A DNA stretch of 64,000 bases, from the NCBI GenBank assembly GCA_963924565.1, contig OZ004607.1, forward strand, positions 11,036,001 to 11,100,000. The letters run 5' to 3'. Below, in pieces: positions 1 through 54,600 of the stretch. Position 1 is the stretch's first letter, and every line of letters starts with the position of its first letter. Under the pieces are notes generated by a model, which ran no database searches, was not told the DNA's origin, and saw nothing but the letters and a program-made list of their open reading frames with translations. The stretch is from Ascidiella aspersa. Lineage: Eukaryota. The position numbers were made by a program, and so were the translations under genes.

Positions 1-310
1 TGAAATCGTAATCAGTTTGTGTAGGCAATTTCCCAATACAGTTGTGCCACTTGCAGGCTGTTTGTGAATTCGCTATAAACTGTTGTGACGACTTGGTTCA
101 TCGTCGACTTAAGTGTTCTTGGATAACTATTTTAAAATAAACCGATGTAATTCCCTTTAGAAAAAAGAATTGACTTACGTCACTTGGGAAAAAATAAAGT
201 GCAATAATTTCAAAAGAACTTTATTTACCATACTTGTTGTCGAAACCAAACGAACGTTTGTGTTTTTTTTAATGACACTGTATTGTAAATTTGGTCTACA
301 GCTTGGCGAC

Positions 311-3300
311 ATGGGTATGTCGAAAAACACCCGAAAGTTGTACTTGATACTGCTTTTAGCCGTTGCACTTGTCTTTTCCCACACTTTTTACTTAACCACC
401 AAGTATGAACGAGTAGTAAGCAAAGACCCAGTGATACGCCTAATGAAGACGACATCAACTATGAAACCCTTTAACTCGACGTGGACCTTAACAAGCGCAG
501 AAGTTCTATTAAAAAGGTCAAGGAAAGAATCCTGGATCAAATTGGATGACCCGGAAATCAAACTGTTGCGTAAGTGTATACTGAAATTTTAAATCGGGGT
601 GAATTTAAAATGCAGCGTACACATACGATTTTAAGACATAGGTCGCATTGTTATAACTTAACAATGTCACAACGCAGATTTAACATATATATGCAGCCTA
701 CTCTGTTTGAAGCTCTACATTGCGCTATTTTAGGATGTTGTTACAATTGCAAAGATAACAGGTTCTTAGACAGCCTACTTACTTTAATGATACCTATAAT
801 TAAAGTCTTGACTTTGTTTGATTAAATGTGTGGGATTATTTATTAATGCGGGATTCGAGCATATAATATTTTACTGGTTCATCCGTTGATCTAAAGTCGT
901 TTTTTTCTTCATGACGTCACTGGGCTACTTCTTTGACGTATTTTCCTGAAACAGAGACAGGTGCCACAATTTTTTCATACCTTTTGAAGGGTGTCACTAT
1001 ATAAAATCTATTGCCTACAGCCCTACAGGGCCCAAAACCTGACCTGTTATTTTATAAGAAAGCTAAGGTTGTTTTTACATATTTTACAAAATACTTTACA
1101 TTGATGAAATATTAACGTTGGCAAGTATAATTAAGCAGTTTATTCGTTAACCTTTGTTAACCTTTAGACTCAACGTCTCTTCACCCATTGGCACTTGACG
1201 AACCGTACGCCAGCAGAATCAAAGGAATAAGATCACGATGTGAAAAGCAAGGCGCAATTAACCCGCTTGTGGATCTTTCTGGGATGATTTATGACGATAA
1301 TCACAAAGTGGTCATGTGTGAAATACCTAAGGTAGGCTATTCCTTTAAAGTTGGTTGTAAAAACGAGTTAACTAAAAGTAATCTGTTAAAACTTTTCAGC
1401 TAAATCCTTTTCTTTATTTTTTTCGTGTAAGGTAATGTGTGTCTTTTGCTGGCTCTGTATCGAGTGTTGCCTGCAAATCTGCAACCTAGTTAAACAATTT
1501 ATGATGTTATTCAAATAACGTTCACAAATTAAAACAAATATATCAATTTTCAGCAAAAGTAAAACCAAAAACACACACAATTTAAGCAAATTTATTTGGT
1601 AGGGCAGCACAATGGCTATCTATTGGGTGCTCTTTTTAAATTGTTTTCTTCACCAAAAAGAAATTTTCACACTTTTTGAAAGATATATAGGCTCACACAT
1701 GCGTTTAAACTTTAAAACAACTGTGATCAAGCTGAGTAGTATAGTTGGTTGAGCGACAGTCTCGGTATAACGGCCCAGGTATGGAGGTAGTGGATGAGCA
1801 GGTAGCCTCGTTGTCCTGCCGGTCGCCATGGGTTTTCGAGCTCCACGCATTGTGGTGCATAAATTTGATGGCGGCCAGCAGGGCATCGTTGTTAAAGAAG
1901 GAGGCTTCTGCGTCGTCCACCTTCAAGACCTTGTGGCGGAACCTCAACGCCATTTGCCCCACTCCCTGACTATCATTGGTCATGATAGAGGCGTAATCGG
2001 TTGGAAAGAAGAACTTTCCAAGGAGAGTTTTACCTTTTCCCGATTCGCCGTGGAGCATGATATGTGGACTGTATTGGATTCCACCGGTTTCACTCCGCGC
2101 TTCCAGCCCAGCTTGAATGAGAACTAAGAGAAGCTCATCAGTGGTTAAGTTGAGGTCGTCAAATTGCACGTTTTTGGCCTCGTTGATGACATCGTAGACC
2201 GCCTGTTTTGCCTCAGCTACAGTCCATTTGGGAACCTGTTGAGCTGCCATTTTCTTTAGTGCTTTCTTGAGCTTGTTTTGCTTCTTCCCAAATTCCATTT
2301 GGTTGTAAGCTCTTTTTGCCAATTGTTCTGGGAACGAGAAGTTCGCCTGGAACAGCTTTTCCTTGTAAGCGTTCATGGAGGGTTTTGTGTCGAACCCTTT
2401 GGCTACTTCTTCGGCGATCTCTTGCCACTGCCCCCTTTTTGGGTAATCTTCTCTTTGCATCATCGCTTTTGCTTCTGCTGGTACATCTGTTTCTAGTGCA
2501 CCCTTGTACATATAGCTGACCCATGCAGCTTGGTCTTTGATTGCTGCTATGTATGTCAGGGTGATTCCTAGTTTCTTCAGCTCTTCGACCACCGTCTTCT
2601 TGCGCCATGCTGCTGCTTGCCGGCCCTCCACCTGACTCTTGGTGATGAATAGCCCATGTCGGTGGGGGCAATTGCTGTTCCCTTTCTCCAGAGGCCCCTG
2701 ATAGATTGTATAACGTGCCGTCTGTGTAATCCCACTTTTGCCAACGGTCGTGGTATAGGCCCATTTTCTGCCTCTGTACTTGTCGGACATCTCCTCTGCG
2801 CCGGTCGTATTCATTTTGATAGGTTATTAGCAAGTCTTCAACAAGCCTATTTATCCTAATGGTTTTCTGAAATGCAGTATCAAGTGGATTAGGTTTTCTA
2901 CAATTAGCTGCAATATTTCGTATCACTTCAATAGTCGGAAATATTTTATCATAATGAATTTATTTGCAACATTGAACGGTATATATACACATACGATGAC
3001 GTCATTGGTACTAGTACTGGTACTTTCATATTTTTGCTCGGTTGACACTAGTACGGGTCCCCAAAAGTGATGTCCAATTCCATGGTGTAGGGGATACATA
3101 CGAAATTGTCTGTCTTGTCAGCGTATCCTGTTGTAGTAGTTTTGTACTCCGCTGCTCTCAGCTCCTTCTTTATCGACTGATCGTACACATGTATTTGTGT
3201 CATCAGTGTTCTGCATGCTGGTGGCTGCGCCGTGCTGACCTCCCACCACGGTGTTTAGTAGTAGTGCGTGACTGTTGTATTGGTTGAGTGCGTTGCGTCA

Positions 3301-6300
3301 CTACAAATTGTATGCGTATCTGATTGGAGGAATTCCAGTGGTAGAGTTGTCATTGTCTCTTCCAGCTGGTATCTTGTGCAATTGCTGTACTCTTCAAGTA
3401 GAAATTCTGGGAATTGTCCTGAGTTGTCCTGAAATCCGTTGTCGAACTTTTGTTCGTAGTGGAATCCGTGACGTTGTGTAGCCACGTCCATCATAATTAT
3501 TGGCATATTCCTGGCATTATCGTCATGGCGGTTCATGGCTGCTGCTGGCCATAGATGTAGTTTCCAGTTTGAGTATTTCATCATAGTATATTTCGGAGCC
3601 AATGCTTTAACTCCTGCTAAGTTGGTTGCTGTTGTCATTCCGTTGCACGCGTATATCCTCCACCTTCTTCCGATGTTATTTCCCTTGTCTACTAGTGCGT
3701 TCATCTGTCTGCTTATTACGGCAGAGTGGACTATCATTAGTGATCCGGCGCTAGGCAGCAGAAGGCTCTCCGTAGTGTTACCGTCCACCCATGTTCTCCA
3801 CGTCTTGAATGTACCTCTGGGGTCGGTGACTGCCTTCTGGTAAAACCACCACATTTCCTTTGTCTGTGCCTCGACGTGTGTTGTCTGTTTGATTGGATGC
3901 ATCCTTGGTATTGGTAAAGTGGGTCCACCTCTTCCTGCCGCCCCAGATCCTCCTGCAGCAGTCTCCGACAGTCTTGCGCGCTTCGTCGGTGGTTCCCCTT
4001 CGCTGTAGTCTGACTGGGAATTGATGGACAAACCCTTCATCGCCTCATTCATTGGGCTTTCTACAGGGCTGTCTCCTGGTACGTTGGCGGGGGTTGCTGC
4101 GGTTGTTGTTGTGCTTCTTGTACTATTGTACTGTTGAATCTGATGCCAGTTCTTCTTTGCCTTCTTTGCAGGGGGCATATGAGGTAGTATCTTTCTCTTA
4201 GCTTCAAATATCCCACGTACGAGATTCCCGCTAAAGCCACCAATATCAGAGCTAGCTCGCAGTAAATCGCTGTCCGCGTTATTAAATTTGTAGTATGCTT
4301 CTTGACCAAGCTTTTCGTATTCTTGATCGTGTCGTTTACACGCTGCATCCAACGGTCCAGTGGTTTCTTGTCCTATATCGTTGAAAGGTCCACAGTGAGG
4401 ATGGCCTGGTATAGTAATTCCTCCTGTAGCTAACTTCTTACTCGACTTCCAGTTCATAATGAATCAAAACTTACCTTATTTGCATATTATATCCTTTTTC
4501 TACCTGGTACTAGTACTGACACTTTCATATTCTTGCTCAGCTGACACTTCCACCTTCCTCAGTACCAAAAGTAAGAATATGAAAGTACCAGTACTAGTAC
4601 TAACCTCATTTACATACTAGTTAGCAGTTCCTTTTACCCATTTAGCGAACTCGGTTCTGTCATAGTGGAAGCTGTGACGTCACAGTGAGCCTTTAGGTGG
4701 CGCGAAGCGCGCCCGAAGGGCCACGCGAAACTGTGACGTCACAGCGACACTATGACAGAACCGAGTTCGTTAAATGGGTGTCTTTGGAGGAAAATTCATT
4801 TTTATTAAAAAGATGAAATATGGAAAAGAGGACATAGCCATACACTCAAGATTAGAATACTATGCAAAATTGTTGAAGTCCATATTTCACCAAAACTGTA
4901 ATTTTGCCCCTGGGTTCACTAAAGTTGACATATTTGTTACAGGCGGCTTGTACCTCATGGAAAGAGCTGATGTGGAACTTGCTGGGATACAACACATATC
5001 CAGACCAATTCGATAAAGCCAAACTTTTACTTTCGCTCGGCTACCTTCCGACATTAGACAGGTGAAAAGCATTAAACACCTTTTTAACTCTAAGGTATCC
5101 AAAAAAAAATGGTATCCGATTTGTTTATTGCTATTTTATCGATTTAGTTCCATAAAAACATCCTAAATTTAATCATTGTACAATTTTTTTGGTATTACAA
5201 ACAGGGTTGTGTAGTTTAGGCCGGATACAGGATTCGAAACTTGAGTAAGAGTGGTCGAGTCCCGAGTCCGACGTGTTCAGTTCTGAACCGAATAAGGCCC
5301 CAGACGTTCCTCACATTACACCTGACACGCTTAAAAGTCGCTTATAGACAAACGACAACTGCCCTTTACTATCATGAGTGTAGAAGTACCCGAGTGCAGA
5401 AATATTATCCTGCTTAAAACCTTGGTGAATTTGTCACTTAAAATATCGCCGCTGCTGTAACAGTGATCATTACAAACAGTCGCTAATTTAAACGGCCTGT
5501 TAATGCGCCTTTCTTTTGCGACATTAAATTATATTAGTATTTCTTGTAATGTTGTATACTGACTTAGTGCACTATTATCACTGTTTTTAAATGATCGGTT
5601 GACTTTATTTTACGTAGCAAAATGATTTACTAGATTTAGGTTAAATAAAAGAATGACTTGACCATTGTAAAAGCTATAAATTTTTTTTTTAATTTTTAGA
5701 CATGCCCCATTGGTCAGCATTATGTTTAGTGCGTGTATTTTGCTTTAAAAAATCATTCTCGATATTGAAAAAATCAGTGAATCAACAGTTTAAAATTTAT
5801 TTTTTAATGCAAATTCTATAAATTGGAGATGACTTGCAATCACTAGGCTACTTGGACAGTGACTTTACTTGGCTTGTCAGCAGATAACTTGACAGGGGAT
5901 TTGATTTTTAAGAACTACTCTTCATGGAAGTTACTTTTGTAAAATACTTGACTTGGCCTTTACTCCTTTAGCAACACCCCTGCCTCTTGTCAGGTTAAAT
6001 CGTGAGGAGGCGATTTGGCGTCTTGCGACTTACACCAAGTTCTTGGTGAAACGACATCCTCTGGAACGACTGGTGTCGGCGCACAGCGACAAGTTTACCA
6101 GCCGGTCGCCTGTGTCCGGTTTTCGGCTGCGAGCCGGGAGGCGGATCGCCGTTGAACAGGCCGACGCCTACATGCACTCGGTCGGCTTCAACAAGACAGG
6201 GTAAATGTCAGTGTTGTTGTAAGCATATATAAACTGTTGCCAGCAGCCATAGTAATACAAATCAAAAAACAGCTCCTCTGGTTTTAATTGTAGACCAACG

Positions 6301-8567
6301 TTTCGGCAACCTATTCAAGCCGCCTTCGCCAGGGTGAATGACACTAAACACTTGTACAATAAACGGAAAACACAAGAAGGATAAAAAGCAGAAAAGAACG
6401 CGAGCAACGAAACGATAAGAAAACAATTAGTGATAACGTTTAGTCCTTCAGCAGGTGCTTATAGCATGCCGAGAACATCACGTCTGGTTTGACGTTCATG
6501 GTGTTACCCTTCTTATGGATGTTCCACGAAGGCGGCTTGAATAGGTTGCCGAAACGGTGGTCAAGAATTAAAATTACCAGAGGAGCTGTTTTTTGATTTG
6601 TTGTAGGCATGTCAAAGTGAAACGGAATTAGTCCAAGCTAAAACGTTTTCCATGTGCCAAGTCGAACCCACAGTAGTCTATGGCCTCTGATATTTATGTG
6701 AAGCAAAGTTATCCGAGTTGTGTGCTATTGTAGTCAAGTTTATTTTCTGTTCGAATCGAATTTAAACCTTAAAGATTCATGGACCACTTATTGTAATTCA
6801 AATTGCGTCGGTACACTGAAGTTGGTTGGTTCAAGGAGACTGTTCTAAAGTTCTAAATAAAATACAAAGTCGTTGTATGGTGGCCAGCGTGACTTCTGGA
6901 GTCAATAGTAATCTTCAGTAAATACACAATCATGAACAAGTGTTTCGCCAAAATACTAGATTCCTACTTTATACGGTGTCGGCAAAATTTGTAGCGCACA
7001 TGCATTTCTATATACAGATAACTCAGGTCTCAGTCAAGGTTTAGGAGTCCACAGTTAAAGAAAAATTGTTGCTCATGTTTAGAACAACCAATATAGCATC
7101 GGTTGAGCAAGACCCGGTTTTTCAGCAATTGTCATCGTCAGAACAGGAAGAGGTCCGTGAGTACGTTTCTAGACTCAACAATGGAGAAATAAGCTTTGTT
7201 CAATTGACAGAGTAAGTTCTACTTTAAAGCGCATGTTCGACCGACCAACTGGGGACTTGTCATTTGTTTTTGCTTTTAATTGCTTTTTTATGCCAAAGGT
7301 TCTTATTCACGGAAGCACTATATATTTATTTCGCGGAACACTATAAAGGAATTTATTTTAAAAGTAGTTTTAATATTCCAGCACACTAAAATAACATTTA
7401 AAAGTTCATATAATTTTTTTTTTATATTACGGAAAACATGACGTTTTAGTGAACGGAATATATAGTTTTTTATTGGGTTAATTTGGAAAAAAAGTTTCAT
7501 TACTTTTTAGTTAAATTTGATATCTGGTAATTAAGTAATATAACTTTCAGTTTAATTTTTATAGCTTTGCATTGCAGTCCGTTTTAATAAACCTTTTCTA
7601 AAAATTTTGCTGTTCATAAATAAATAAAATTTGGGTGTTTAGCCATGTTGTTAAGTCTATAGATTAATTTTATAATTAATGTTTAATAATCCGTTAATAT
7701 AGCTTTCAGTTGAGTGTCTATAGCAGTGCTTCTTAAACATTTTTAGGTCTGTTCACCCCTAGCATCTATCTCCAGATTTCATTCACCCTTGTCTCATGAT
7801 ATGATAAAACTATCTCGTTCTATATAACAGCACAAAATGACTTCTACCCAATCTAAGTTTTATCAACTCAAGCTAAGTTTTACCATTGCAAATCTACAAT
7901 TTCTCGAGTCCAGAAATATAAAGCTACAAAAAAAAGCACAAAACACAGTCACCAAATCTTTGTACTTATACACCCAGTGCAAAACAACTTCACCATTACA
8001 ATAAGCAAAAAAATACCAAAAAACAATAGTTTTGTAGTCGATTTTCTGCAGAGCTATCATCCATTTCTGACGGTTCACCCTTATTCACCCCTTTTGGTTG
8101 GTTCACTCCTGCAAAAATTGTATTCACCCTGGGTTGAACCATTCACCTGTTTAAAAAACGCTGGTCTATAGTATTGCATTGCGGTCCGTTTTAATTAACC
8201 TGTTCTAAAATTCTTCTGTTCATAAATAAATCAAACTCGGGTGTTTAGTCATGTTGTCAAGTCAAGTGAACGGGGTCTGGCAAAGTTGGACATCCACTGG
8301 CGCCCACAAACAACACTCTGCAATCCTTGCGCCATCAACTACGACTACGTTATCGACTTTGATCACCTGACTCGGGATTCGAACCGCCTACTCGACTACT
8401 TGCAGGGCGACAAGCCAAACGAGTGGCGGCTCAGTCTAAAAGAAAAGAACGCAACCATAAAACAAACTGCCGTGGACAGCGCCTTTGCTTCGATCAGCGA
8501 CCAAACTATACGAAAACTAAGGGAAGTTTACCAGAAAGATTTTTGCGTTTTGGGATACGATTGGTAG
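311..8567 (+). CDS. Carbohydrate sulfotransferase (CHST8-14/HNK-1ST-like, Sulfotransfer_2 family), type II Golgi membrane protein, 6 exons
   Basis: Exons 311-569, 1168-1331, 4943-5061, 5994-6200, 7083-7211, 8249-8567 join in frame with GT-AG junctions. N-terminal TM anchor LYLILLLAVALVFSHTFYL; 5'-PSB motif CEIPK|AACTSWK split by intron 2; 3'-PB motif RHPLERLVSAH; family motif DIHWRPQTTLCNPCAINYDY; C-terminal YQKDFCVLGY. Confidence 0.9.
1705..2814 (-). CDS. Rep/NS1-like protein: HUH rolling-circle endonuclease + SF3 helicase, C-terminus probably damaged
   Basis: Motif I-like RKWAYTT (aa 16-22), motif II YQGPLEKGNSNCPHRHG, motif III WVSYMYKG (Y101), Walker A HGESGKGKT (aa 255-263), Walker B KVDDA (aa 298-302). 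No clear motif C. ATG context caaaATGa. Confidence 0.88.
   Translation of the reverse strand: MNTTGAEEMSDKYRGRKWAYTTTVGKSGITQTARYTIYQGPLEKGNSNCPHRHGLFITKSQVEGRQAAAWRKKTVVEELKKLGITLTYIAAIKDQAAWVSYMYKGALETDVPAEAKAMMQREDYPKRGQWQEIAEEVAKGFDTKPSMNAYKEKLFQANFSFPEQLAKRAYNQMEFGKKQNKLKKALKKMAAQQVPKWTVAEAKQAVYDVINEAKNVQFDDLNLTTDELLLVLIQAGLEARSETGGIQYSPHIMLHGESGKGKTLLGKFFFPTDYASIMTNDSQGVGQMALRFRHKVLKVDDAEASFFNNDALLAAIKFMHHNAWSSKTHGDRQDNEATCSSTTSIPGPLYRDCRSTNYTTQLDHSCFKV
2213..2926 (-). CDS. NS2-like accessory protein overlapping the 5' half of Rep in another frame
   Basis: 237-codon open frame overlapping the Rep N-terminal half, the arrangement seen for densovirus NS2. GTG start as annotated; the promoter-proximal ATG at 2952 is one base out of frame. 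No recognisable motif. Confidence 0.55.
   Translation of the reverse strand: MIRNIAANCRKPNPLDTAFQKTIRINRLVEDLLITYQNEYDRRRGDVRQVQRQKMGLYHDRWQKWDYTDGTLYNLSGASGEREQQLPPPTWAIHHQESGGGPASSSMAQEDGGRRAEETRNHPDIHSSNQRPSCMGQLYVQGCTRNRCTSRSKSDDAKRRLPKKGAVARDRRRSSQRVRHKTLHERLQGKAVPGELLVPRTIGKKSLQPNGIWEEAKQAQESTKENGSSTGSQMDCS
2950..3049 (-). promoter_or_regulatory. Putative viral Rep/NS promoter
   Basis: 44-bp block 3006-3049 shared with the VP promoter, CRE TGACGTCA 2997-3004, TATATATA 2980-2987, Inr-like TCATT 2953-2957 directly followed by ATG. AATAAA at 2959-2964 (- strand) could be the VP polyA signal. Confidence 0.65.
3255..4457 (-). CDS. Parvovirus-like VP1 capsid protein with N-terminal phospholipase A2 domain; frame continues past one stop to 3048
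   Basis: vPLA2 Ca-loop TIPGHPHCGPFN, catalytic helix LDAACKRHDQEY and downstream YYKFNNADSDL; basic NLS-like PPAKKAKK and PPTKRAR; Gly-rich AAGGSGAAGRGG before the capsid core. Confidence 0.9.
   Translation of the reverse strand: MNWKSSKKLATGGITIPGHPHCGPFNDIGQETTGPLDAACKRHDQEYEKLGQEAYYKFNNADSDLLRASSDIGGFSGNLVRGIFEAKRKILPHMPPAKKAKKNWHQIQQYNSTRSTTTTAATPANVPGDSPVESPMNEAMKGLSINSQSDYSEGEPPTKRARLSETAAGGSGAAGRGGPTLPIPRMHPIKQTTHVEAQTKEMWWFYQKAVTDPRGTFKTWRTWVDGNTTESLLLPSAGSLMIVHSAVISRQMNALVDKGNNIGRRWRIYACNGMTTATNLAGVKALAPKYTMMKYSNWKLHLWPAAAMNRHDDNARNMPIIMMDVATQRHGFHYEQKFDNGFQDNSGQFPEFLLEEYSNCTRYQLEETMTTLPLEFLQSDTHTICSDATHSTNTTVTHYY
4061..4348 (-). CDS. Putative small membrane protein overprinted (+1 frame) on the VP1-unique PLA2 region
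   Basis: ATG-initiated 95-aa ORF with one hydrophobic helix AIYCELALILVALAGISYVGYL followed by basic KLRER; position matches X/ARF1/MAAP-type overlapping ORFs of parvoviruses. Confidence 0.5.
   Translation of the reverse strand: MQRVNDTIKNTKSLVKKHTTNLITRTAIYCELALILVALAGISYVGYLKLRERYYLICPLQRRQRRTGIRFNSTIVQEAQQQPQQPPPTYQETAL
4455..4548 (-). promoter_or_regulatory. Putative viral VP promoter
   Basis: 44-bp block 4505-4548 (39/44 identical to 3006-3049), ATATAAT about 30 nt upstream of Inr-like TCATT (4458-4462), which abuts the VP ATG. Confidence 0.65.
4636..4779. repeat. Y-shaped terminal hairpin (parvovirus-type telomere/origin)
   Basis: 32-bp stem 4636-4667/4748-4779 (one G-T), GAA/GA bubble, perfect 16-bp stem 4671-4686/4730-4745, internal loop, GTG/CAC neck, two ears GCGC-GAA-GCGC (4700-4710) and GCCC-GAA-GGGC (4711-4721). 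Confidence 0.92.
6257..6601 (-). mobile_element. Penelope-like retroelement remnant with inverted terminal repeats
   Basis: ~72-bp inverted arms 6257-6328/6527-6601. Enclosed - strand ORF tail WNIHKKGNTMNVKPDVMFSACYKHLLKD* (6440-6526) resembles the PLE GIY-YIG C-terminus. Arms contain a hammerhead-like core CTGGCGAAGGC...GCCGAAACGTTGGTC. Confidence 0.7.
7724..8163. mobile_element. hAT-type MITE
   Basis: 8-bp TSD GTCTATAG on both sides; imperfect TIR CAGTGCTTCTTAAAC / GTTTAAAAAACGCTG. Confidence 0.85.
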
Positions 8568-11389
8568 GTTCTCGGTACAGATATGCCACATTACGTTTAT
8601 CGGTGCCATTGCATTTTTATTTGACGAGAAAGTAATCAAACGTATCACGTGTGTTATAAAATCTCTCACTTTTTTATCGTTGGCAAAATAATACGTATGT
8701 ATTGCCAAATATATTAAACCGTTTTGTTTCGTTCCACATAGACACATTGATTATCGGATGTCATGATGAGTGATGACATATTCAACAAAGCTGTACGGCA
8801 ACATCACATTTTTTTCAAATTTGTACAGTGTTAAGAATTCGCATTTTCGTCAAACTGCGATCTTTACTGCTACTGGGCGTATGAATTGTTTTGCTAGTTA
8901 CTTTAATATAGGCCTACAGACACGCAAGTAAAGCTTTTCTTTCTTCATAATAAATCTTTAATGTCATTTAAATCAATTTTTTTTACAAATTAAAAGTGTT
9001 GTTGTGATAACTATATTCACCGAAACATATTTTAAACTATTCCCGCTTGACGTATCTTATCGAAAAAAAACGCTGATGGTCTACCATAACGTTACAGCAC
9101 TTTAAGAATAGAATTGGAGCAACCCGTTTGCTTAAGTTCACAACTGCTGAAAGTAATAGGTCAGTTGACATAACGTTTTTAAATTTGTTTTCCTGCTTTC
9201 GGCGGCCGTGCCGCAAGATTTGTAGAGCAGCACAGCTTCTTGCATCTCTACCAGTACATGTTTGTATCACGAGAAGAAACTGTTGTGTAGAAGGCAGTGT
9301 ATCAAATACTTTTAAGTTGTCATTTTGCTTGACGTGTTTAAAAATGGTTAAAAAGGCTTTTGGCTGCCCGCTGTATAAGTAAAATGACTCTTTTACCAGG
9401 TTAGTTAGCGTAATATATTACGCTCGCTATAGATAAAAACGTTTTTGTTAATTGCTTATATGTGCCAAAATTGACATAGGTTTAGTCAGGGGTTATTGTT
9501 TATGGTGTTCTATAGTCGATTCATAATACAACTCTTCTATACAATTTTTTGGGTCTCATAAACTTTGGGTGCTATGTTTTCCTTTTAAGTGCTATAGAAA
9601 TTCTCTTGTGTAACGTTTGGTGTATCCTGAAAAATTATTCCGAATTTTTTTACAAATGTTAAATGCAAATATAAACTCATATATATATAATCTACACGCG
9701 CCATTTTCGAAGCATATATAAACTTCAATTCGGCACAACTCTGTTTAATACTTTACCACTCATTACATGATTTTCAGGGCAGGCAACAGTGAAGTGACAC
9801 GGGTAAACATAGCGGACAAATAAAGGCTTTTAACCATTAGAATGTAGAAAAGTTACCAGTCTTAAAACCATCAGTCAGTAAAACCAGTACATCACAAGGA
9901 CTGCTGAATATTGTTTAATCAACTATATTGCGTACAAGTAAAGATTTTGTAAGCAAATAACGAAAAACTAGTTTAAGTTAAGGCCTCACAAAAGACTGTT
10001 TAAAAGCATATTGTTAGATAATATTAAAAAAACTGTGCCCCTATATACGTAATTATAAAATGATTTTTGTTGTACTAGGTTTGCTATACCTTATGGGTTG
10101 TAACCTATATATATATAGATATATTGGAGATTTCGTTGCTAAGTTTAACCGGGACGTTACAAGGTGCAACCGTGAAGGTATATCAGGAAGTTATAAGAGG
10201 TGTGACGCCTGACCTTCAACCTGCATTACGCATCCCAGCAATACAGACAGTTCGTCGCCCATGGAAAGTTATCGCAATATAAGTACAACTTAAACTGTAC
10301 GACGCAGTTAGGTTTACATGTTCAACATGAGGTTGTTTGAACCGCAAGTACCGATTAAACTTTGTTTCCATGGTACTGGATTTCGTTTTTATCAACTATA
10401 GTTTTGTGTGCTATCATTCTATGCAAAATTGGTGCACACAAATGGGTAACAAACTAACGATGCGAGTTTGTAACACAGGACGTATCACATTTCGCGGCTG
10501 AGGATGTTAACCATTGCCTGTCGTGTGGATGCAGCGATAGAGAGGTATAAGGAAACCTGGGCTCGTACTTATTAATGTTTAATCTTTTCCGTATCATCGC
10601 GTGTTCACTCAACGGAGGCCGAGCGGCGGCTTTAATTCGCTGAGACAAGAAGTGCTATCTGAGTTTGTATTTATCTGAATGATTACCCGATGGTATATTT
10701 ACTCTATCGTTTAAAGCCAAAATATAAAAATAAAACTGTAGAAGTTACCTGATTGGTGTGAAGTTGACGACGGAATACTACCCTAAGTTCTCAAACGTAA
10801 TGCTTGCTGTTCTTCAAAAAAATTACTAAAATGTTTTAACAATGATTTTTAATAACTGGCTTTGGTGCTGGTGCTGAAAAACTTGCTTTGGCGAACATTG
10901 ACTGAGGTGTATCGGCAATGTTTAATATTTTCAGAGTGACTGTTTATTTGCGACATTACCCCGATGTTAACTCGGTAGACAGTGCTGTACGACATTAAGT
11001 ATAGACAGTACGTTGAGGGCACGTATCGCAAACGTAGGAAGTCAATAGTGGATGCCGTACAGCCCGCAATTAGAAATTAAAAGGGATATACACTATCAGT
11101 AACAGTATTGTTGCAACCCGATGTAAACAGTGCAGAAGAAACCGTCACTTAGTAACTTGTGCAATTTTGTTTAATACCGTGCTTGCTCTACAGGCTGTAT
11201 TTGGTTAGGTTCTCTCGCGATACAAAATTTAAGCACCAGATAGTTTGTTTCTAACGAAACCTTCACTCAGTAACTTGTGAGATTTTGTTTTTGATAACCG
11301 TGTTTGCTTTACATGCTGTATTTAGTTTAGGTGCTCAAGCTGCAGGTGTCTGGATTGTTGTGCTTTAGAGTTGTGGAGGTAAATTACAA

Positions 11390-14300
11390 ATGCCAAGTGA
11401 AATGATTCAGGATGTGATTTTGCTGTTTTGTATCGCCGCTTTATGCATTGCACAGACGCACAGCCTCGATCAAGGTTGGTCACTTTTTGTTTGTTAGGGA
11501 TTGGAAATGCAATTGACTGTGTATAACGTTGCCCATATGAAAAATAGCGATAGGACTATGACTTCAAACACAAGGCAGTACCCAAAATGTGAATCGGTAT
11601 CAGCAAAACAACGTATTTACAAACGTGGGAAAATTGTTTGTTCAGTAAATAGGTATGTGTGGTGATCTGGTTATTTGCCAAAGGTTGGTCTATTTAAGGT
11701 ACCTTTTTTCTCTTGAAACAAAAATAACAAACTTTAAACTGCCTTTAAGATATTAGGTGTTAAAACATATAGTATTTGTATCTTGTACTGCAATTAACAT
11801 GTAAATATACGCGGAGGCGGTCCACGGGCAACTTACACGATATACAGGCGATATTTGTTTAGCGCGAATCGATCTTTGAATGTAGCTTTTCAATAAAGAA
11901 CCTTTTTCATCCTGGCCACTCACAATCATGAAAACACCATGAACGTTAAGCAAGACACATTTCTTGCACCTTCTTATCAATTTTTGTGCAGTAACGGTCA
12001 TTAGAAGTCTGCAACCGGTTATCGCGTTCTCACGTTATTCGCGCCTTGTTACCTTTTTTCGCCTCGTTTTGCCGCCTTGATTTTACCTTTCTGCAAGGTT
12101 ACAAGTTGATTTGCCCTGAAGGAGATTGCCTGAATAGGTAATTAAACGTCTGCACAGAATAAATATTTGTCAGAAGAACCCTATTTTAATTTTCATTAAA
12201 AGTATAAAAAAATTCGAACTTAAACTTATTCTTAAGATTACTCTTTCCATATAAGTTGCGGATTGACACCATACTTGTGAGTCCAGTTGTACGACAGAAA
12301 CAAACAAAACTTTTAGTGTTGGGTGACTTTGAACTACCTTAGTATGCAATAACCTTATTGGCAAGTGCTGTTTGTCCTTTGTCAAGAAAGGTTTGATTTT
12401 CAGATATTGTTGCCGAGACGAAGCATGGCAAAGTTCGCGGCACGACACGAAGGGCTCTTACATCGGACCGCCCCGTGTACTCCTACTTCGGGGTTCCTTA
12501 CGCAAGGACGCCCGATTATAACTTTAGGTTTGTACCGCCGGTCGACCCCTGGTCCTGGGATGACGTCAAGCCGGCCGACGACGAAAACACGCCTTTCTGC
12601 CACCAGGTAGAAAGTCAAATCTGCATTGAGCCGTGTTTGCAAGGGTAAATGCTAAAACAAAAGCTGAATGACATGCTGGTGTTGTATTGCAGCAGTCAGC
12701 CGAAAATAATTTTTTTGGGAGGGGGGCAAAAAGTTTGAACTTTTTTGTTTAGATTTTGTCAATGCATTAACTTCCGTATCGAACACAATAACAATGCTAC
12801 CAAACCGTTTCGAGCAGCACGGAGTGCATTGCTAACGCAACACTAAAAAAACATTCAAAGAGCATGGCCCTGTGCCCCCTGGCTACGCCAATGGTGTATT
12901 GTCCGCTTTATAACTACGTTGAGTCTACTTTTTTTTTCTTTTTTTTTCTCTTTTTTCGATAACTTTTCTTCACGTAAAGCTATACATAAATAATCTTCGC
13001 AAATCTTTGTTTTAGTAATGTTATTATCAATAACTATGTTTGTGTGTTTTGCCGCAGGATTCAGGTATACTCTGGAGAATGCTGGCCGACACTTGGCTGC
13101 GCTTTGTTACCAGTCCTGACCATCCATTGAGCGAAAACTGCCTTACAGTGAACGTGTTTTCGCCGCGACATCCGAAGGCTTCAAAGTCCGATAAAGGGTT
13201 GCCGGTATAGCATTCTGTTGTACGCTGTTAGACTTTTGATATAGGCTCTGGTATACAGTTAACTTTGCAGGTGTTTAACTATACCAAATAAGTTAAAAGC
13301 GACATTGTTCTGTGTAGCCATATTATTTTATACATTGGGCTAACTTGCAAAGGTTATACCCACTGTGTATCTACAGCCCATTTTTCGTATATTTCCTATC
13401 TTCTTCAGTTTCATTTGGTAGGAAGAATTATCGCTTTAAACTCGATGTCTAGAAAAGGGCGACAGATTGTTTTCTGCTGTTTAGAAAACATTCTGAGTCC
13501 CAAAATAACAGTCCAAAGTTGGAAGTTATCTCCTTGCGGCCAATCAGATATAAGATTTGGTTAGCTTCTTTACTATATCTGCTTGTCGCAGTTATTATTC
13601 AAGTGCTGTAAAAATATTTCTACCATATTTAAAAAAATAACCTGCCACAATAATATACAATATAGCATCTTGGGCATAAGTTCAAACAGACACATAAAGG
13701 CTTTATCAGAATAATGTCATAATTCACAATACAGTGTTCAAACGTTCAAATACAATATAGTGTTTTTTTCCTTATGGAGGGCATGGCCGGATCCAATTAA
13801 TCTTAAATGAATCAACTCGTGATAACACGAACAAGTACAAACACACATACAAACACACAGACACGCACACGCACACGCCACATAAACGCCTATTTTTGAA
13901 AAATCTAGGTTTTGTTTGATTGACTGCTGTTCGATCCTATTGTAGCGTAGTTCGCTAGCCAAAGTTTCTAAAATTCCAACTATACCGAAAAGTTTCAAAC
14001 AAAGAAACTTGTCGATTTGAAGTGCTTGAACACATCCCCATTCCCCAGGTGATGGTTTGGATCCACGGCGGCTCGTTCCAGGCATCAGGCACCACCAACA
14101 AGTTATGGATGCTTCCCGCCTTCGAAGACGTGCTGCTGGTAACAGTCAACTACAGACTTGGGGTGTTTGGTTTCCTCAGTCTGGGTGACCCGCTGGCCCC
14201 TGGCAACGCTGGCCTCCACGACCAGGTCAAGGCCCTGGAATGGGTCAGGTAAGGGCGGAGAAACTGTTGTAAACAAGGCATTTTTGAATGGTTTAAGTCC

Positions 14301-17300
14301 CATTCAGGTCATTTGAAAAAAAACAACAAGTCCAGTTATTTTCAAAAATAACAAGTCAAGTCCCAGTCCAAGTCATCGGTTACCCAAGTCAAGTTCCAGT
14401 CAAGTCATTATGAGAGCAAGTCAATTTCAAGTCATGTCAGTAACATAAAAGTTAACTGTTAAGCTATTAAAATTGGTAACCTGATCCGATTATAAAAAAA
14501 CAATTTAACTAAAAAATAACTCAACCGCAATATACAGAACTAAGTGTTTAATATGCACAACTTGAAATAAATAGTAATGAAAATGCCTAATTAAATACCA
14601 AATCATTTAACAAAATGACTTAAGTTCAAGTCAACTCATTTTGAAACAGCGACATAATGGCACTTAAATCAAGTCAATAACTTAAGTAATTAAAACACTG
14701 ACCGGAGCAACTATTGCAGCTCAGCTGTGTTTTCAATATTACCTGTTCTCCTGCGAAGAAAATTGTGTGACCAAAAATGTGCAAACTTCTTTAAAAAATG
14801 TACGGACGTAGTAACCACAGTCAACCACTACGTAACTTCTCTCAATAGATTCCTTCCAAAAAGTGAGAACTCGTGTTGTTTTAGTTTAATTTGTTAATAA
14901 TATTTTTGAAACTGCTCTTGCTACAATTTCCGATCCTTTTCTTACTTTAAGCAAAGTGTATCCATTCAGAGTTATTTGACGAAGCTGAGTTGTTAAGGCG
15001 TTTAATGGTTTTGTCTAGCGACACGGATGAAATATTGTTTTACGCCCTCCCCCATGGATTGATAGCATCTCGATTTGTTTTTAACGCAAGCCGCAAAAAA
15101 AAATTAAAATGAAATGTTGAAAATATTTTTTTGGCTTTGATATTCTTACTACGTCTTAATACAACCTCCAGAAATTAAATTATATTGCAATTTTACTTTA
15201 GCACAGTCTTACAAGGGTTTTGAAACACAGGGACAACATCGCCTCTTTTGGGGGAAATCCTGACTCGGTCACACTTGTCGGGGCGTCGGCCGGGGGTTTC
15301 GCGGCAAGTGCGCATGCGCTGTCTCCCCTCAGCAAGGGGCTTTTCCACAGGGTGGTAGCAATGAGCGGGGTGGCAACTCTTCCGTTCTTATGGAGCACAA
15401 ACCAGGATGAGAAGACACGCAGGTATTACATTGGTATTTGGTGACCACATGTTTTAAATTGCCCTACAGGGTTGTTGTCGGTGGGCCTTAACGTGATGTT
15501 TGGCTTTTTATAAGCTCACATCTTTGTCATCAAAATTTAGAAAATCTTTGTTAACGACAAATAGCGATTTGTATGCTTTAAAACCACATTTTAAACTTGT
15601 TAGGTTTGTGCAGATTATGTCAGTTATCATGTCAATATAAACTATAAAGTGATAGTGAATGTCAAAAACCGTTCGAGTTAATCAACATCTTCTTGAAAAC
15701 GACCTTTAATGTGCACTTGTATCATCATCAGTTAGTGGGATACAAAGTGCAAGCGTGATATAGGTGCGCATCATAACGTCTTCATCAGGATTATGTGGAT
15801 TTACTCGAACTTTTGACTTTGACATTCATTATATCAAGCTAATTACAGATCCGTAAATGGTGTACCCAGCAGAAAATTGTATTCTGCAAACTGTTAAAAT
15901 TATTACAACCCGTTTGTTAACTTGTGGTTTGAACAGTATTAAAGTAGGATTTTCTGTATTATTAGGAAACCTTGTCATTTCTCTTATTTCTAGTCAGAGA
16001 AACCTGATTATCACAGAAAAGATATTTTGCAGGCAAAGCAAGGGTAAAATAATTGAAATTTGCTTTAAGCTATTTTTCTAGCCCCTGTTTTGCTCACATG
16101 AAGATTCTTGGAAGGCCTCTTAATTTTGTTGAGCCCTCAACTGGTTTATTGTTCATATGTGTGTTGATTTCTCGTGACTATAACTTTGAAAAGAAGACAC
16201 TTCACATGTATAACATGGGAGATAATTGGTATTCACAAAGCAACCTATAATATCCAAGGTTTCTTTAAACAATCTATATTGAAACAGGGTGGCAAATAAC
16301 ACAAACTGCCTGTTGTACAAGAAGAAATACACCGTAACGTGTCTTTGCAACAGAGTTACCTCAAGTGAGCTCATTGAAGCTGCGAAAAATGAGGTAAAGG
16401 CTTTGTACCTTGAAATATATTCGCTGTGGCTGATTGTTTTCCAACAAATTATAGCATGTTTTTAAAGTTTATGGCATCTTGTTTCCTAGTCTTGGGCCCT
16501 TGATATTTAATTAAGGGATTTAGAAGATTCTTTTATTAAACATAGAGCGAATAAAAATAATCAGACACACTAAGGGTCAAAGATCGACCTCTAGAAAGTA
16601 CTAATTTGCTATTTATCTTGCGATAATACATCCCAACCCTGAAAATTTCCCATATAATCGGAGATGGCAGTTAATTAGGAAAGATGGGTTAATTGCAATA
16701 TCTTAACATTCTTAACGAAGGAGCTCACACTTGAAGCAGCATTTTATCAAAAATGGTAAAACCCTAAAAGCGCCTGTGCCATAAACACTTATAACTAAAA
16801 CAGAAACCGATACTTGTAGATCATAGCCTTACATGAGGTGGCAACTAATATTGCCTTGCTTAACGATTGATTTTATGATAGAGATACTCGCCCGAGGTTG
16901 ACGGACATTTTTTCCTGGCCCCTGCCGACCAGCTGCTGGAGAAGGGGGCTTTCAACAAAGTCCCATTGATGGTGGGGAGCGTCACTGGGGAATTTGACTT
17001 CATGCTTTCAAGAAAGCTGGTTCCCAAATATCACCAAGGTACAGTGTTGTAAAGAAGTCATTTTGGAGGACTAAAGTCCCAGTCAAGTCATTTGAAAAAT
17101 ACCTTAAGACCTTATAACAAGTAAAGTCCCAGTTCAAGTCATAGGTTGCCCAAGTCAAGTCCCAGTCAAGTCCTTATTAGAGCAAGTCAATTTCAAGTCA
17201 TGTCATTGACATAAAAAAGTGTAAATTTTAAACTATTAAAATTGGGAACTCGTCCGATTATGAGCAACAATTCAACTAAAAAATAACACAAACGCAATAT

Positions 17301-51600: not shown

Positions 51601-54600
51601 AATAAGATGCTATCCCAGAATGCTGAACAGCAATATGCAGTTAAACATGGTAATTGTTTAATTTTGCAATGTAAATGCGAGTGCAATTGTTATTAGTGTT
51701 GAATGTTCAATAATAATTGATGAACGGAAAGATCATCATAGTTTCTTTAAAGGTTTAATTAATAGGCTCAGGGGTAATTTTAGTGAAAATGTTAGGAACA
51801 ACAGGATTAATGGGAAGCAGAAACATTAGTTCACAACTGAGCACGTTATTTGATTACATATTTCGTTTTATATCTTGAGGTTCTTACAATATGCAAAAAT
51901 AAATCCGTGAAAAATCTGTCCAGCTGCCACAGTTCTATAATTAATAAAATCACAAAAGTTTGCAGCCTGTCAGATTGTCGCCTGCCTCAGTGTTCAATGA
52001 ATTAAAATGAGCACGTGAGTCAATGTATTCAAAACCCTTAACTTCAACTTAAGTAAATTTGGGGAAAACATTGTAAGTGATTTAAATAAATACATTGTAG
52101 TAAAGGTTAAAACACTATTTTATTCACGTAAAAAACTAAATATAAAAATATTAACTCGTTTTTTTGGATATCGATAACATGACTACGATTTAACTTTCTA
52201 GCAGGGTTAAAATAGAATAATTTTCTTCCCGAAAAGATAAAAAATTGTCTTTCTGGGACAAATGAAAATTGTTATACATGACGTCACAAAGGTAAACGTC
52301 AGAACAAAAGGTCTAAAACCAGTAATCTTAGGAAACCTGGGTCTATCGTTCGAGGGCACAAATCTGCAACTAAAATTTTAGTTTAATCTATCTAAGGCAG
52401 GGGTTCTTAAACTTTCTTCAGCGCGGACCACTAAATTTTTTTTTTGCTTCGCGTAGACCACGGTAAGCAAGAATTTTTTAAAAATGACGTCATAAATTGA
52501 CGTCACAATACAAATAGACTAAAATGTGAAAGGAAAATAAAAAAAAATGTGAAAGGAAAAAAAAGAGTCTAAATACATTCAGTGCACAAACGTTTCATTA
52601 TTAATTAAACTATTTTCTTAGAAAAATTAATTACTTTTGAAATATACACTAATATTTCAATTTGACCTTCACGGACCCCTTAAAACTAGTTCACGGACAC
52701 CCAGTTTAAGATCCCCTGATCTAAGGAGATGACCCGATAGCCAAAATGGGATATGGCCTGGTAAAAATAACAATTTGGTAAAAACTATTTTGCCACAAAG
52801 CCGCTGCGGCGGCAAATCTCTTACTGGGATACCGTTCCGGACCTTTTCGGCCTAGTTGCATCACAGTTTGCTTGGCAAACGTCTTTGACTGGGATCTGAG
52901 TCGGCAAAGTAATAACTTGAACTTGAACTTGACTTGATATTTGTGGAAATCGACTTGACTTAAACTTTAGTTATTTTTTGGAATGACTTTCCTGAGACTT
53001 AAGTCGCTGAAACAAACTTGTTTACAACACTGCACTGTTGTTTTTAAATACCCAGGTCATTTAAAAGTCTTGTATGGTGTCGTTTAATTATTGTATTCGC
53101 AACACGCGACTTGCTCTGTTTGTGCCTCGCTGTGTCTCGTTGTGTTGCATATAAATTCACTCCATTAACTACGCGCTGCTGAGAGGTTGTGTTTTATGTG
53201 CGCGTACACTCTCTTTGATCTACTGATGAACTTATTAAACTTTTTAAAACAGTTGCAAACTGCGGTTTGCCGCCACCGGCACCGAAGAACGGCTTGGGGC
53301 CGGTAATTTCGCCACTGGGCCAGACGGCTCCCTTTCGGCACATGTCCACGGCAACGTACACTTGTGACGATGGCTACACTGGTGATAACCTGGTGCTGAA
53401 CTGCTTCTACCCAAGCTTGGTGTTTACGCCCGACATTAGTCCCACCTGTTTCAAGAGTAAGTGCCCGAAGAATACCAAGGTAATATTAAGTTTCGCTCTT
53501 AACATGCGTTTTATGTAGATTCATAAAAATAACTATGACTATAGTTAACATTTTGTCAGTGGAAATGTAGATTACATCAGTGTATTATGTATGGGCCTGG
53601 CTTCATATATTAAAATTAGTGGGATTCTCAATCTATAACGGACGTACGTAGGGCTCGATCGGGCAGGCCAATGTAACTTATCCGACCAAAACCGCTTTTA
53701 ACAAATTGTGTTAATTGTCTAGCACATAATTACTCGTGACATTAGGATTAGTTGATCAAGCTTAAATCATACAAGACTTAAAGCTGTTGAATCAATGTGA
53801 CTAGTGCGATTAGTTGTGTATCTTTGACTGAACAGTTTTTACTGTGTCTTTTATGGGTGACGGTTTGTAATTATTTGCTATTTTGATAAATATGTTAGGT
53901 CTATGTTAATTTTTCAATTATTTTTACCTTGTATTTTAACAAAATTGTTTGCTCAACAATTTTCTAAAATAACCAACGTTTTGTTTTCCTTGACATTCTC
54001 ATAGTTGTTTGTCTTCTTTATATTTCAAATATATAAACTATAGGCATTTCTAATGGCCTTGCATAAACCCGAAAAAATGAATGAATTGTGTACACCGATC
54101 GTCAGTAAAACACTAAACGTGACGACACAAAGACAATAATGTAGTACTTCATACAACAATGCATTGTTTGAATCAATGTCTTCCTTGTAGGTCAAAACTT
54201 TGTCAAAAAATCTTTAGGTTAATTTTATTTTCATTTTTGATGTCAAAACTAATTGCACTAGTTAATTATGTTACAATATAGAGCTGCGCGTTTTGCATTT
54301 TTGCAGGATTGTCCTATTAATAGTAACTTAACGTATCGGATTTACATATTAGCACGGTCCCAATTTACTTTTTATATCTTAATTTAGCAATTTCCAAATT
54401 TTAACAAAACACTTAGAAAAGTTAATGTTGTGTTCAGACTTCAGAGGAACAAACTGCATTCAAGGTTTACCATGTTAAACTTTTCTGGCACGCTTTGTCA
54501 GTAAAAGTGTCAGCGCAATTAATACGCCCCGCCGAATCGCCGATGCCTTCCTTAATTGATTATGGCGCTCGGCTAGAAAAAATGCCCCCGCTTCAAAACA

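Follow-up and report, generated by a model that had tools for sequence, protein, structure and literature searches.

What is the long foldback sequence that lies in an intron of a sulfotransferase gene of Ascidiella aspersa, directly beside viral genes? We addressed this in a window of 64,000 nt (the whole stretch analysed: contig OZ004607.1 of assembly GCA_963924565.1, forward-strand positions 11,036,001 to 11,100,000; coordinates below count from its first letter). The host gene (Sulfotransfer_2) is on the plus strand, and its intron contains, antisense to it, a viral insert of ~3 kb that ends in a 144-nt hairpin. A preliminary description made from the letters alone had called this hairpin a viral telomere. 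We find that it is probably the left-end telomere of a virus with linear single-stranded DNA (ssDNA), the left ~3 kb of which was integrated antisense into the intron of an animal gene. That the hairpin is a viral telomere is very likely: it adjoins a capsid gene with a phospholipase A2 (PLA2) domain, followed by a gene for a Rep protein with an HUH nuclease and a superfamily 3 (SF3) helicase; it is the 3′ end of the negative strand, the polarity of minute virus of mice (MVM); and it occurs as a single copy in the window.

Structure of the terminal hairpin

The viral genes read on the minus strand, which makes the plus strand the negative strand of the virus. The hairpin sits at its 3′ end, which is how a left-end hairpin is defined (PMC8242256, in part; this mark denotes papers available in part). 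The order on the one strand is hairpin, capsid, Rep (Table 1), and the capsid gene starts ~180 nt from the hairpin.

Table 1. Positions of the hairpin parts, viral genes, putative promoters and flanking host exons in the window.
Feature	Position	Strand	Remarks
Terminal hairpin	4636..4779	+	Plus strand corresponds to the negative (antisense) strand of the virus; 4779 is the presumed 3′ end; orientation from minus-strand open reading frames (ORFs)
Outer stem, inboard arm	4636..4667	+	Pairs with 4748-4779
Bubble triplet GAA, inboard arm	4668..4670	+	Faces GA 4746-4747 of the outboard arm
Inner 16-bp stem, left arm	4671..4686	+	14-nt palindrome 4672-4685; cyclic AMP response element (CRE) octamer TGACGTCA 4675-4682
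43-nt head	4687..4729	+	GA 4687-4688 against GAA 4727-4729, asymmetric loop, 3-bp closing stem, two ears; the Y is not the fold of lowest computed energy
Inner 16-bp stem, right arm	4730..4745	+	Second CRE octamer 4734-4741
Outer stem, outboard arm	4748..4779	+	Host intron junction at 4779/4780
Inverted copy of promoter-proximal module	4570..4603	.	90-91% complementary to 4507-4537 and 3005-3038
Putative left promoter	4457..4548	-	44-nt module 4505-4548; TATA-like TATAAT 4491-4486; donor 4474; TCATT (A 4460); ATG 4457; function inferred
Capsid gene, 469 codons	3048..4457	-	N-terminal PLA2, low-complexity linker, shell domain of ~290 amino acids; one in-frame stop 3255-3257
Putative second promoter	2952..3049	-	Module 3006-3049; CRE 2997-3004; TATA 2987; AATAAA 2964; TCATT (A 2955); function inferred
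Overprinted ORF, other frame of Rep gene	2213..2959	-	248 open codons; 183 amino acids from first ATG 2764; NS2-like by position only
Rep gene	1762..2814	-	HUH nuclease and SF3 helicase joined by a helical linker; degenerate motif C; similarity to relatives stops at 1762, short of the arginine finger
Host sulfotransferase exon upstream of insert	1161..1331	+	3′ end 1331; 5′ boundary unmapped
Host sulfotransferase exon downstream of insert	4943..5061	+	In frame with exons ending at 1331 and starting at 5994

The stems, GAA/GA bubble, palindromic core and two GAA-loop ears agree with the preliminary description, coordinates included, with the refinement that the 32-bp outer stem consists of 31 Watson-Crick pairs and one G:T pair (4645/4770). 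The inner stem has 16 pairs and no mismatch. Its 14-nt core, CTGTGACGTCACAG, is self-complementary and is found in the window only at 4672 and 4731, even when two mismatches are allowed (0.09 copies expected). In the bubble, the triplet is inboard and the doublet outboard. The ears (4700-4710 and 4711-4721) abut, each with 4 bp and a C(GAA)G loop, and are closed by 3 bp (4697-4699/4722-4724); the stable GAA loops are read on the negative strand only. GCGAAGC, earlier cited as an ultra-stable mini-hairpin, is experimentally far more stable than models predict and melts at 76.5 °C, and CCGAAGG is likewise treated as a mini-hairpin (PMC13037366, in part).

The fold check proposed with the preliminary description, run on positions 4620-4800, gave a strong hairpin (z = -14.0, equalled by none of 200 shuffles). 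Two abutting 4-bp ears with a 3-bp closure arose in only 2 of 100,000 shuffles of the 43-nt head; we therefore take the Y-shaped head as its likely, though unproven, folded form. A second GA/GAA mismatch, previously overlooked, tops the inner stem (4687-4688/4727-4729), such that each arm is a GAA-16 nt-GA unit. With it the CRE stem is two-fold symmetric and its arms are 21-nt direct repeats.

The outer arm ends at 4779, and the sequence beyond is not the complement of the inner flank; we therefore reject a replicative dimer-bridge junction. Position 4779 may be the natural 3′ end, or the DNA may have been broken at the junction. The structure had been called an intact Y-shaped telomere; its parts are present, the Y is not the computed minimum, and intactness is not provable as the arm stops at the junction. 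No second copy of the hairpin occurs in the window, and Rfam gave no match across positions 1-9000. At 144 nt, it falls within the range of 120-600 nt given for parvovirus hairpins (PMC6537627).

Capsid gene, promoters and Rep

The capsid PLA2 domain matches PF08398 (E 2.9e-14, 53.5 bits against a cut-off of 23.9), as it does in both capsid relatives, and the best PDB matches of the capsid by sequence are parvovirus VP1 proteins. These two relatives, 64% and 51% identical, were found among 1,374 candidates; both are unbroken and their ends coincide with that of the window gene. Longer relatives were absent among 5,752 candidates. The shell domain of one relative resembled ssDNA virus capsids by Atlas features at 0.91-0.94, with family agreement in only 2 of the 10 best matches.

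A 44-nt module, TGCAAATAA and TTCATTATG precede both the capsid and the Rep gene, and the two modules are 89% identical. Each putative promoter contains the module and TGCAAATAA along with a TATA-like box, and its initiator-like TCATT has its A 3 nt before an ATG. TATA box and initiator are spaced 31-32 nt apart, similar to the 28-30 nt of tapeworm densoviruses (PMC6880638, in part). There is overlap between the second module and the capsid stop codon, and the second promoter contains the one AATAAA found on the coding strand. Directly after the second initiator is an ATG from which the Rep frame stays open for just nine codons (2923-2952, minus strand). We also observed a palindromic decamer, GTACTAGTAC, with three copies in 64 kb, all in viral promoter modules (4505-4603, 3006-3049); the left two belong to a 31-bp inverted repeat with copies 32 nt apart, a candidate site for Rep or a host factor. 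The coding strand of the virus has a single consensus splice donor (4474, 17 nt before the capsid ATG), and of its seven pyrimidine-rich acceptors only one has a branch-point match (2867, 53 nt before the Rep ATG). A transcript begun further upstream could splice out the whole capsid gene, which would let the promoter next to the hairpin express Rep; we identified no start of that kind.

Seven relatives of the Rep, at 37-55% identity, were found among 5,820 candidates, and a profile search gave 75 clusters at E ≤ 0.001, three query members included. None of the 46 clusters scanned matched Pfam at the curated cut-off; the remaining 29 are mostly fragments. Parvo_NS1 was matched neither by the window Rep nor by any of its 7 closest and 43 further relatives, and no match to Viral_Rep or Gemini_AL1 was seen in the window Rep or the relatives scanned. 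The motif set of CRESS (circular Rep-encoding ssDNA virus) Reps consists of HUH motifs I-III, Walker A and B, motif C and an arginine finger (PMC5923481, in part). We counted such motifs in a 43-row alignment of the family, using the rows with a residue at each position. The nuclease motifs are kept, namely the W of a motif-I-like W-x-F-T (28/31), the E of G-P-x-E (30/32), the His of His-Gly (H53, 30/32) and the motif III Tyr (Y101, 31/33), with the first His of HUH in only 16/31. Walker A has GK in 36/36 rows and Walker B has DD in 31/36; parvovirus NS1 typically has EE at Walker B. Motif C, like the arginine finger, is present across the family, but the window copy has a degenerate motif C and has lost the arginine finger.

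The AlphaFold model of the Rep (pLDDT 86.6) has AAV2 Rep68 as its top Foldseek match in the PDB (E 3.4e-6). Its nuclease (residues 13-123) aligns with the pMV158 RepB origin-binding domain at a middling score (Z 7.5, root-mean-square deviation [rmsd] 3.3, 96 residues aligned). For the helicase, papillomavirus E1 (Z 10.6, rmsd 2.9, 145 aligned) and AAV2 Rep68 (Z 9.9, 3.2, 145) are tied, and B19 NS1 scores Z 9.4 (3.9, 146). These three alignments start at Rep residue 196-199 and include two helices before Walker A, whereas that of porcine circovirus 2 (PCV2) Rep starts only at 243-244 (Z 7.7-8.0; rmsd 3.2 with 116 aligned at 8.0), partly since one PCV2 construct is short. Among the 50 BFVD matches listed, each 10-16% identical, is a mixture of NS1 from hamaparvoviruses with CRESS Reps and E1, and the nearest Atlas clusters are mostly Cressdnaviricota, all below 0.9. 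Among the structure matches listed, none was to a parvovirus or circovirus by the nuclease domain only, which is uninformative because the helicase fills the lists. Sequence comparison of the Rep with the PDB gave only P-loop matches. Among eight proteins PHROGs gave one weak match, phage and plasmid collections gave none, and neither of two sets of pattern matches in prokaryote genome contigs was confirmed (0/15 and 0/44). The Rep had been described as CRESS-like. On these models the term describes its nuclease, not the whole protein: the helicase fits E1 and parvovirus Rep/NS1 better than circovirus Rep, and the overprinted ORF and the length of the protein are likewise closer to those of parvoviruses or papillomaviruses.

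The overprinted frame is open over 199 Rep codons, a length matched by 1 of 5,000 synonymous shuffles, and continues open for 65 codons upstream of its own first ATG. Its product matched no family and had no similarity to P0003, as expected for another frame. By position only, this ORF resembles NS2, the ORF overprinted on the Rep gene of invertebrate parvoviruses.

In a tree of 34 of 37 Rep rows (three without a Walker pattern were dropped), which holds unnamed relatives only, the window Rep groups with P0003, P0006, P0019 and P0025 (97/97) inside a 27-row core (100/99). P0006 and P0008 are two halves of a related Rep, both listed with a longest contig of 3,437,210 nt, and are probably another endogenous copy. 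Since these fragments sit on a 3.4-Mb contig, the Rep family appears to integrate. A second Rep group (P0067, P0072, P0076, P0077, P0079 and P0082) gave weak profile matches (E 7e-9 to 7e-4); the five in the tree, P0082 having been dropped, fall outside the core beyond a long branch.

Candidate origin signals and a proposed mechanism

The left-end hairpin of MVM is Y-shaped with small ears. The preliminary description had also attributed to it a GAA/GA bubble and a CRE, which is correct: MVM has an ATF/CREB consensus in the stem and an outboard GA doublet facing a GAA triplet, with the doublet side, from the outboard arm, forming the active origin and the triplet side inactive (PMC1185569, in part). 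The window hairpin shares the CRE and the bubble with its doublet outboard, and is likewise at the 3′ end of the negative strand. It differs in having no ACCA repeats or CTWWTCA, in having the second GA/GAA mismatch above the CRE stem, and in adjoining a capsid gene where MVM has NS1. MVM also has the paired ACGT half-sites needed by PIF (parvovirus initiation factor), whereas the window hairpin has one ACGT per arm, at 4677 and 4736, which pair together in the hairpin and whose CpGs are 57 nt apart in the duplex. The spacing rule for GMEB/PIF is 4-11 nt between CpGs (PMC4274154), and the earlier assignment of ACGT PIF/GMEB sites is thereby left unsupported. One looser GMEB-type match (4723-4739) is at chance level, being found equally in 1102 of 2000 shuffles. 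On both strands of positions 4480-4800 we found no tandem ACCA, no CTWWTCA and three isolated ACCA words, all outside the hairpin; the CRESS nonanucleotide core TATTAC was also absent from this interval. By its protein-binding sites as read from the sequence, the hairpin is not an MVM-type origin. Its likeness to the MVM left end, judged from descriptions and not base by base, may reflect homology or convergence.

The CRE octamer is a genuine feature, as only 10 of 2000 shuffles have one. Elsewhere, CRE pairs 13 nt apart are found at 52485/52498 and 60466/60479 within host repeats, and the octamer is ~20-fold over-represented from 912 to 63598. We also noted, post hoc, three CGAA/TTCG words spaced 11-12 nt apart at 4703-4729 that fit the DEAF1 half-site rule (4/5,000 shuffles; 0/410 host tiles). 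Two of the three are the ear loops themselves, and Rep-binding repeats are an alternative candidate for these words. GA-type mismatches are structurally stable, as is known from nuclear magnetic resonance of the parvovirus GA/GAA loop. The GAA/GA bubble may make the arms unequal as in MVM, or may recur as a stable G-A structure.

We propose the following mechanism. The negative strand would be packaged, and its 3′ end would fold back to let base 4779 prime synthesis of the complementary strand by a host polymerase; the hairpin is likely to be such a negative-strand primer. In the duplex, the CRE palindrome would recruit host CREB/ATF-type factors for the adjacent promoter, and the third CRE would do the same for the second promoter. 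A role of CRE in transcription is suggested because the third viral CRE sits just upstream of the second TATA box, and we regard it as an even question. Leaky scanning from the first promoter would yield a PLA2-bearing and a shorter capsid protein, and from the second promoter Rep and the overprinted protein. Rep would nick near the telomere, and its SF3 helicase would drive rolling-hairpin replication. The 3-versus-2 bubble would leave unequal arms in the replicative dimer, only one of which would be an origin; such an MVM-style spacer function is doubtful though possible, and GMEB as a cofactor is improbable.

Competing explanations, affiliation and significance

Could the insert instead be a fusion of two segments of a bipartite virus, with capsid and Rep on separate hairpin-ended molecules that have a common promoter module? 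The hairpin would still be a telomere, and the capsid-first order would not be native. The presence of the 44-nt module, TGCAAATAA and TTCATTATG before both genes would suit such a virus, a parvovirus with two segments and identical termini exists (PMC10267136, in part), and the contig of the closest capsid relative, at 1,710 nt, is about as long as the interval 3006-4779 (1,774 nt). However, the second module overlaps the native capsid stop, the only AATAAA is where the capsid transcript would end, and no hairpin remnant lies between the genes. The terminus is 1,966 nt from the Rep start, which with a Rep of 546 amino acids gives ~3.6 kb; the closest Rep relative is on a 3,737-nt contig and another on a 4,058-nt contig, with room for both genes, and short contigs may be fragments. 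We consider a bipartite virus unlikely. The module overlapping the capsid stop, the AATAAA within the second promoter, and the ~3.6 kb compared with 3,737 nt together favour a one-piece genome with the capsid first, its nativeness being unproven. A permuted canonical parvovirus is ruled out by capsid and Rep genes that abut without a hairpin between them and by a hairpin that precedes the capsid. In the mainly open-access literature that we searched, we found no capsid-first monosense parvo-like virus.

A circular CRESS-type virus would make the hairpin an unusually long rolling-circle origin and the gene order a consequence of where the circle opened at integration. A same-strand capsid-Rep order is natural on a circle, the small nuclease has a motif-I-like W-x-F-T, the nearest Atlas clusters of the Rep are the mostly Cressdnaviricota ones noted above, and the top Atlas matches of the capsid domain include CRESS capsids. 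Yet the TATTAC core is missing, CRESS stem-loops are short and do not resemble a stem of 48 bp that carries a branched head, PLA2 and an overprinted ORF are parvovirus traits, and the helicase aligns with E1 and AAV Rep from residue 196 but with PCV2 Rep only from 243-244, so that we regard a circle as very unlikely. Highly improbable, too, is a host foldback element of the miniature inverted-repeat transposable element (MITE) type lying by chance beside a viral insert. CRE octamers are enriched in the host DNA, some of them in host repeats, and the host has another long hairpin that occurs once in the window; but the present hairpin has no other copy in 64 kb and no target-site duplication, abuts the capsid promoter where a telomere belongs with MVM-like polarity, and has non-random ears that would have no role in a MITE. 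We give just as little credence to an assembly chimera of a free virus genome with host sequence: the genes and hairpin are near-intact, but the capsid gene has an in-frame stop, the Rep end is degenerate and truncated, the flanking host exons are collinear and in frame, and related Rep fragments (P0006, P0008) lie on a 3.4-Mb contig.

Several observations weigh against a left-end telomere of a linear ssDNA virus. A host hairpin at 24148-24324, also single copy in the window, is stronger (-76 kcal/mol, with 84-bp arms that are 90% complementary), so that stability by itself is no sign of a viral end. The ViennaRNA minimum has a one-armed head at -64.3 kcal/mol, with the best two-ear fold at -62.5 (1.8 higher) and ear pair probabilities of 2-5%; the folding parameters give no bonus to cGAAg loops, the loop term being the same as for TTC loops. 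An ACGT pair at GMEB spacing is lacking, as are ACCA repeats and the nick consensus of MVM, and the CRE octamer is common in this genome, with 15 in the window (3 in the element, 12 outside) where 0.64 are expected. The AlphaFold prediction for the capsid failed (pLDDT 26, three sequences). The right end is missing, as similarity stops at 1762, so linearity is inferred from one terminus. The hairpin and gene order are known from this window only, the relatives being known as proteins. Finally, a capsid gene beside the priming hairpin is the opposite of the usual parvovirus layout, which has the NS cassette left and VP right or is ambisense (PMC6537627; PMC11357303, in part). Weighing these points against the evidence above, we regard the hairpin as a probable left telomere, with a presumptive origin function, of an unclassified parvovirus-like virus whose capsid gene comes first.

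Which viruses does it most resemble? Classification in Parvoviridae rests on SF3 helicase phylogeny (PMC13426907, in part). Among the traits of this family we found a Rep with HUH nuclease and SF3 helicase and a VP1 N-terminal PLA2 (common but not universal); sequence-level homology to the Parvo_NS1 helicase and the NS-left/VP-right or ambisense order fail. Because of the latter two, membership in Parvoviridae is not established. The left end of human bocavirus 1 is similar, with 140 nt, a predicted Y, short ears, an unpaired bubble and no NS1-binding element found (PMC8242256, in part). It differs in that Rep and capsid are unrelated by sequence beyond PLA2, and that the window has duplicated-module promoters and the capsid first. 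The invertebrate parvoviruses (Densovirinae, tapeworm endogenous viral elements [EVEs] and the Acheta domesticus segmented densovirus) share the VP1 N-terminal PLA2, endogenous copies, separate TATA-initiator promoters (PMC6880638, in part) and leaky scanning (PMC6537627), the last as proposed for the window; many invertebrate genomes contain sequences related to parvoviruses (PMC5013282, in part). Unlike them, the window element has no Pfam match to Parvo_NS1 or a parvovirus coat, the DD form of Walker B, a monosense capsid-then-Rep order and a shell of only ~290 amino acids.

Two further groups were compared by description. The Oomyviridae (Lineavirales; parvo-like hybrid virus NIH-CQV) are described as linear ssDNA viruses that pair a PLA2 capsid with a circovirus-related Rep (PMC13426907 and PMC12451638, both in part), but their likely hosts are stramenopiles (PMC12451638 and PMC4419787, both in part) and the window element is in an animal gene. 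The name Oomyviridae was absent among the 50 BFVD matches listed, many of which are unnamed. The SwaBA-MePV-1-like megaparvoviruses share a PLA2 gene upstream of NS1 and are known as EVEs. As described (PMC13426907), however, their PLA2 is a separate ORF, the capsid is downstream of NS1 and the termini are likely inverted terminal repeats, whereas PLA2 and shell form one gene upstream of Rep in the window.

The integration had been called recent. One stop in the ~3.2 kb of reading frame (~132 expected per unit divergence) gives a divergence of ~0.8% (95% interval 0.02-4.2%), and for the stem a single mismatch over 96 sites corresponds to ~1.0% (0.03-5.8%); both estimates assume neutrality and omit the damage near motif C, which would raise the figure, and the G:T pair may be native. 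A recent event is plausible at these divergences but is not datable. The flanking host exons join in one open frame, and the host DNA has no CpG depletion (observed/expected 1.04), as would suit an invertebrate. No target-site duplication was seen, the longest words common to the two junction zones being 6 nt, and no other viral gene fragments were found in the window with the Rep profile or tblastn. Of the neighbouring host features, 6257-6601 in the next sulfotransferase intron contains MITE-like nested inverted repeats (26- and 47-nt arms), and 12397-15444 contains carboxylesterase exons (PF00135 match for 13959-14252).

Y-shaped left-end hairpins and parvovirus-like fossils in animal genomes are already known. 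It is uncommon for a viral fossil to carry a nearly unchanged telomere, as such fossils usually lose the replication hairpin. Also uncommon are the capsid gene in first position and the attached Rep family, whose 75 clusters gave no Pfam match where scanned and which lacks a close named relative in the structure matches listed. If relatives confirm the layout, the locus provides the host type, genome end and gene order for an unclassified virus lineage. It would also serve as an independent case in judging whether the GAA/GA bubble of rodent parvoviruses is a general solution for a one-arm origin or a recurring stable G-A structure. We tentatively suggest, at somewhat less than even confidence, that this is the first genome end of an undescribed family of linear ssDNA animal viruses that combines a CRESS-type nuclease with a papillomavirus/parvovirus-type helicase, a PLA2 capsid gene in first place and a left end like that of rodent parvoviruses. 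If so, the GAA/GA bubble, CRE and eared head would be older than Parvoviridae or would have been re-invented independently, and the family would bear on the rise of parvo- and papillomaviruses from CRESS-like ancestors.

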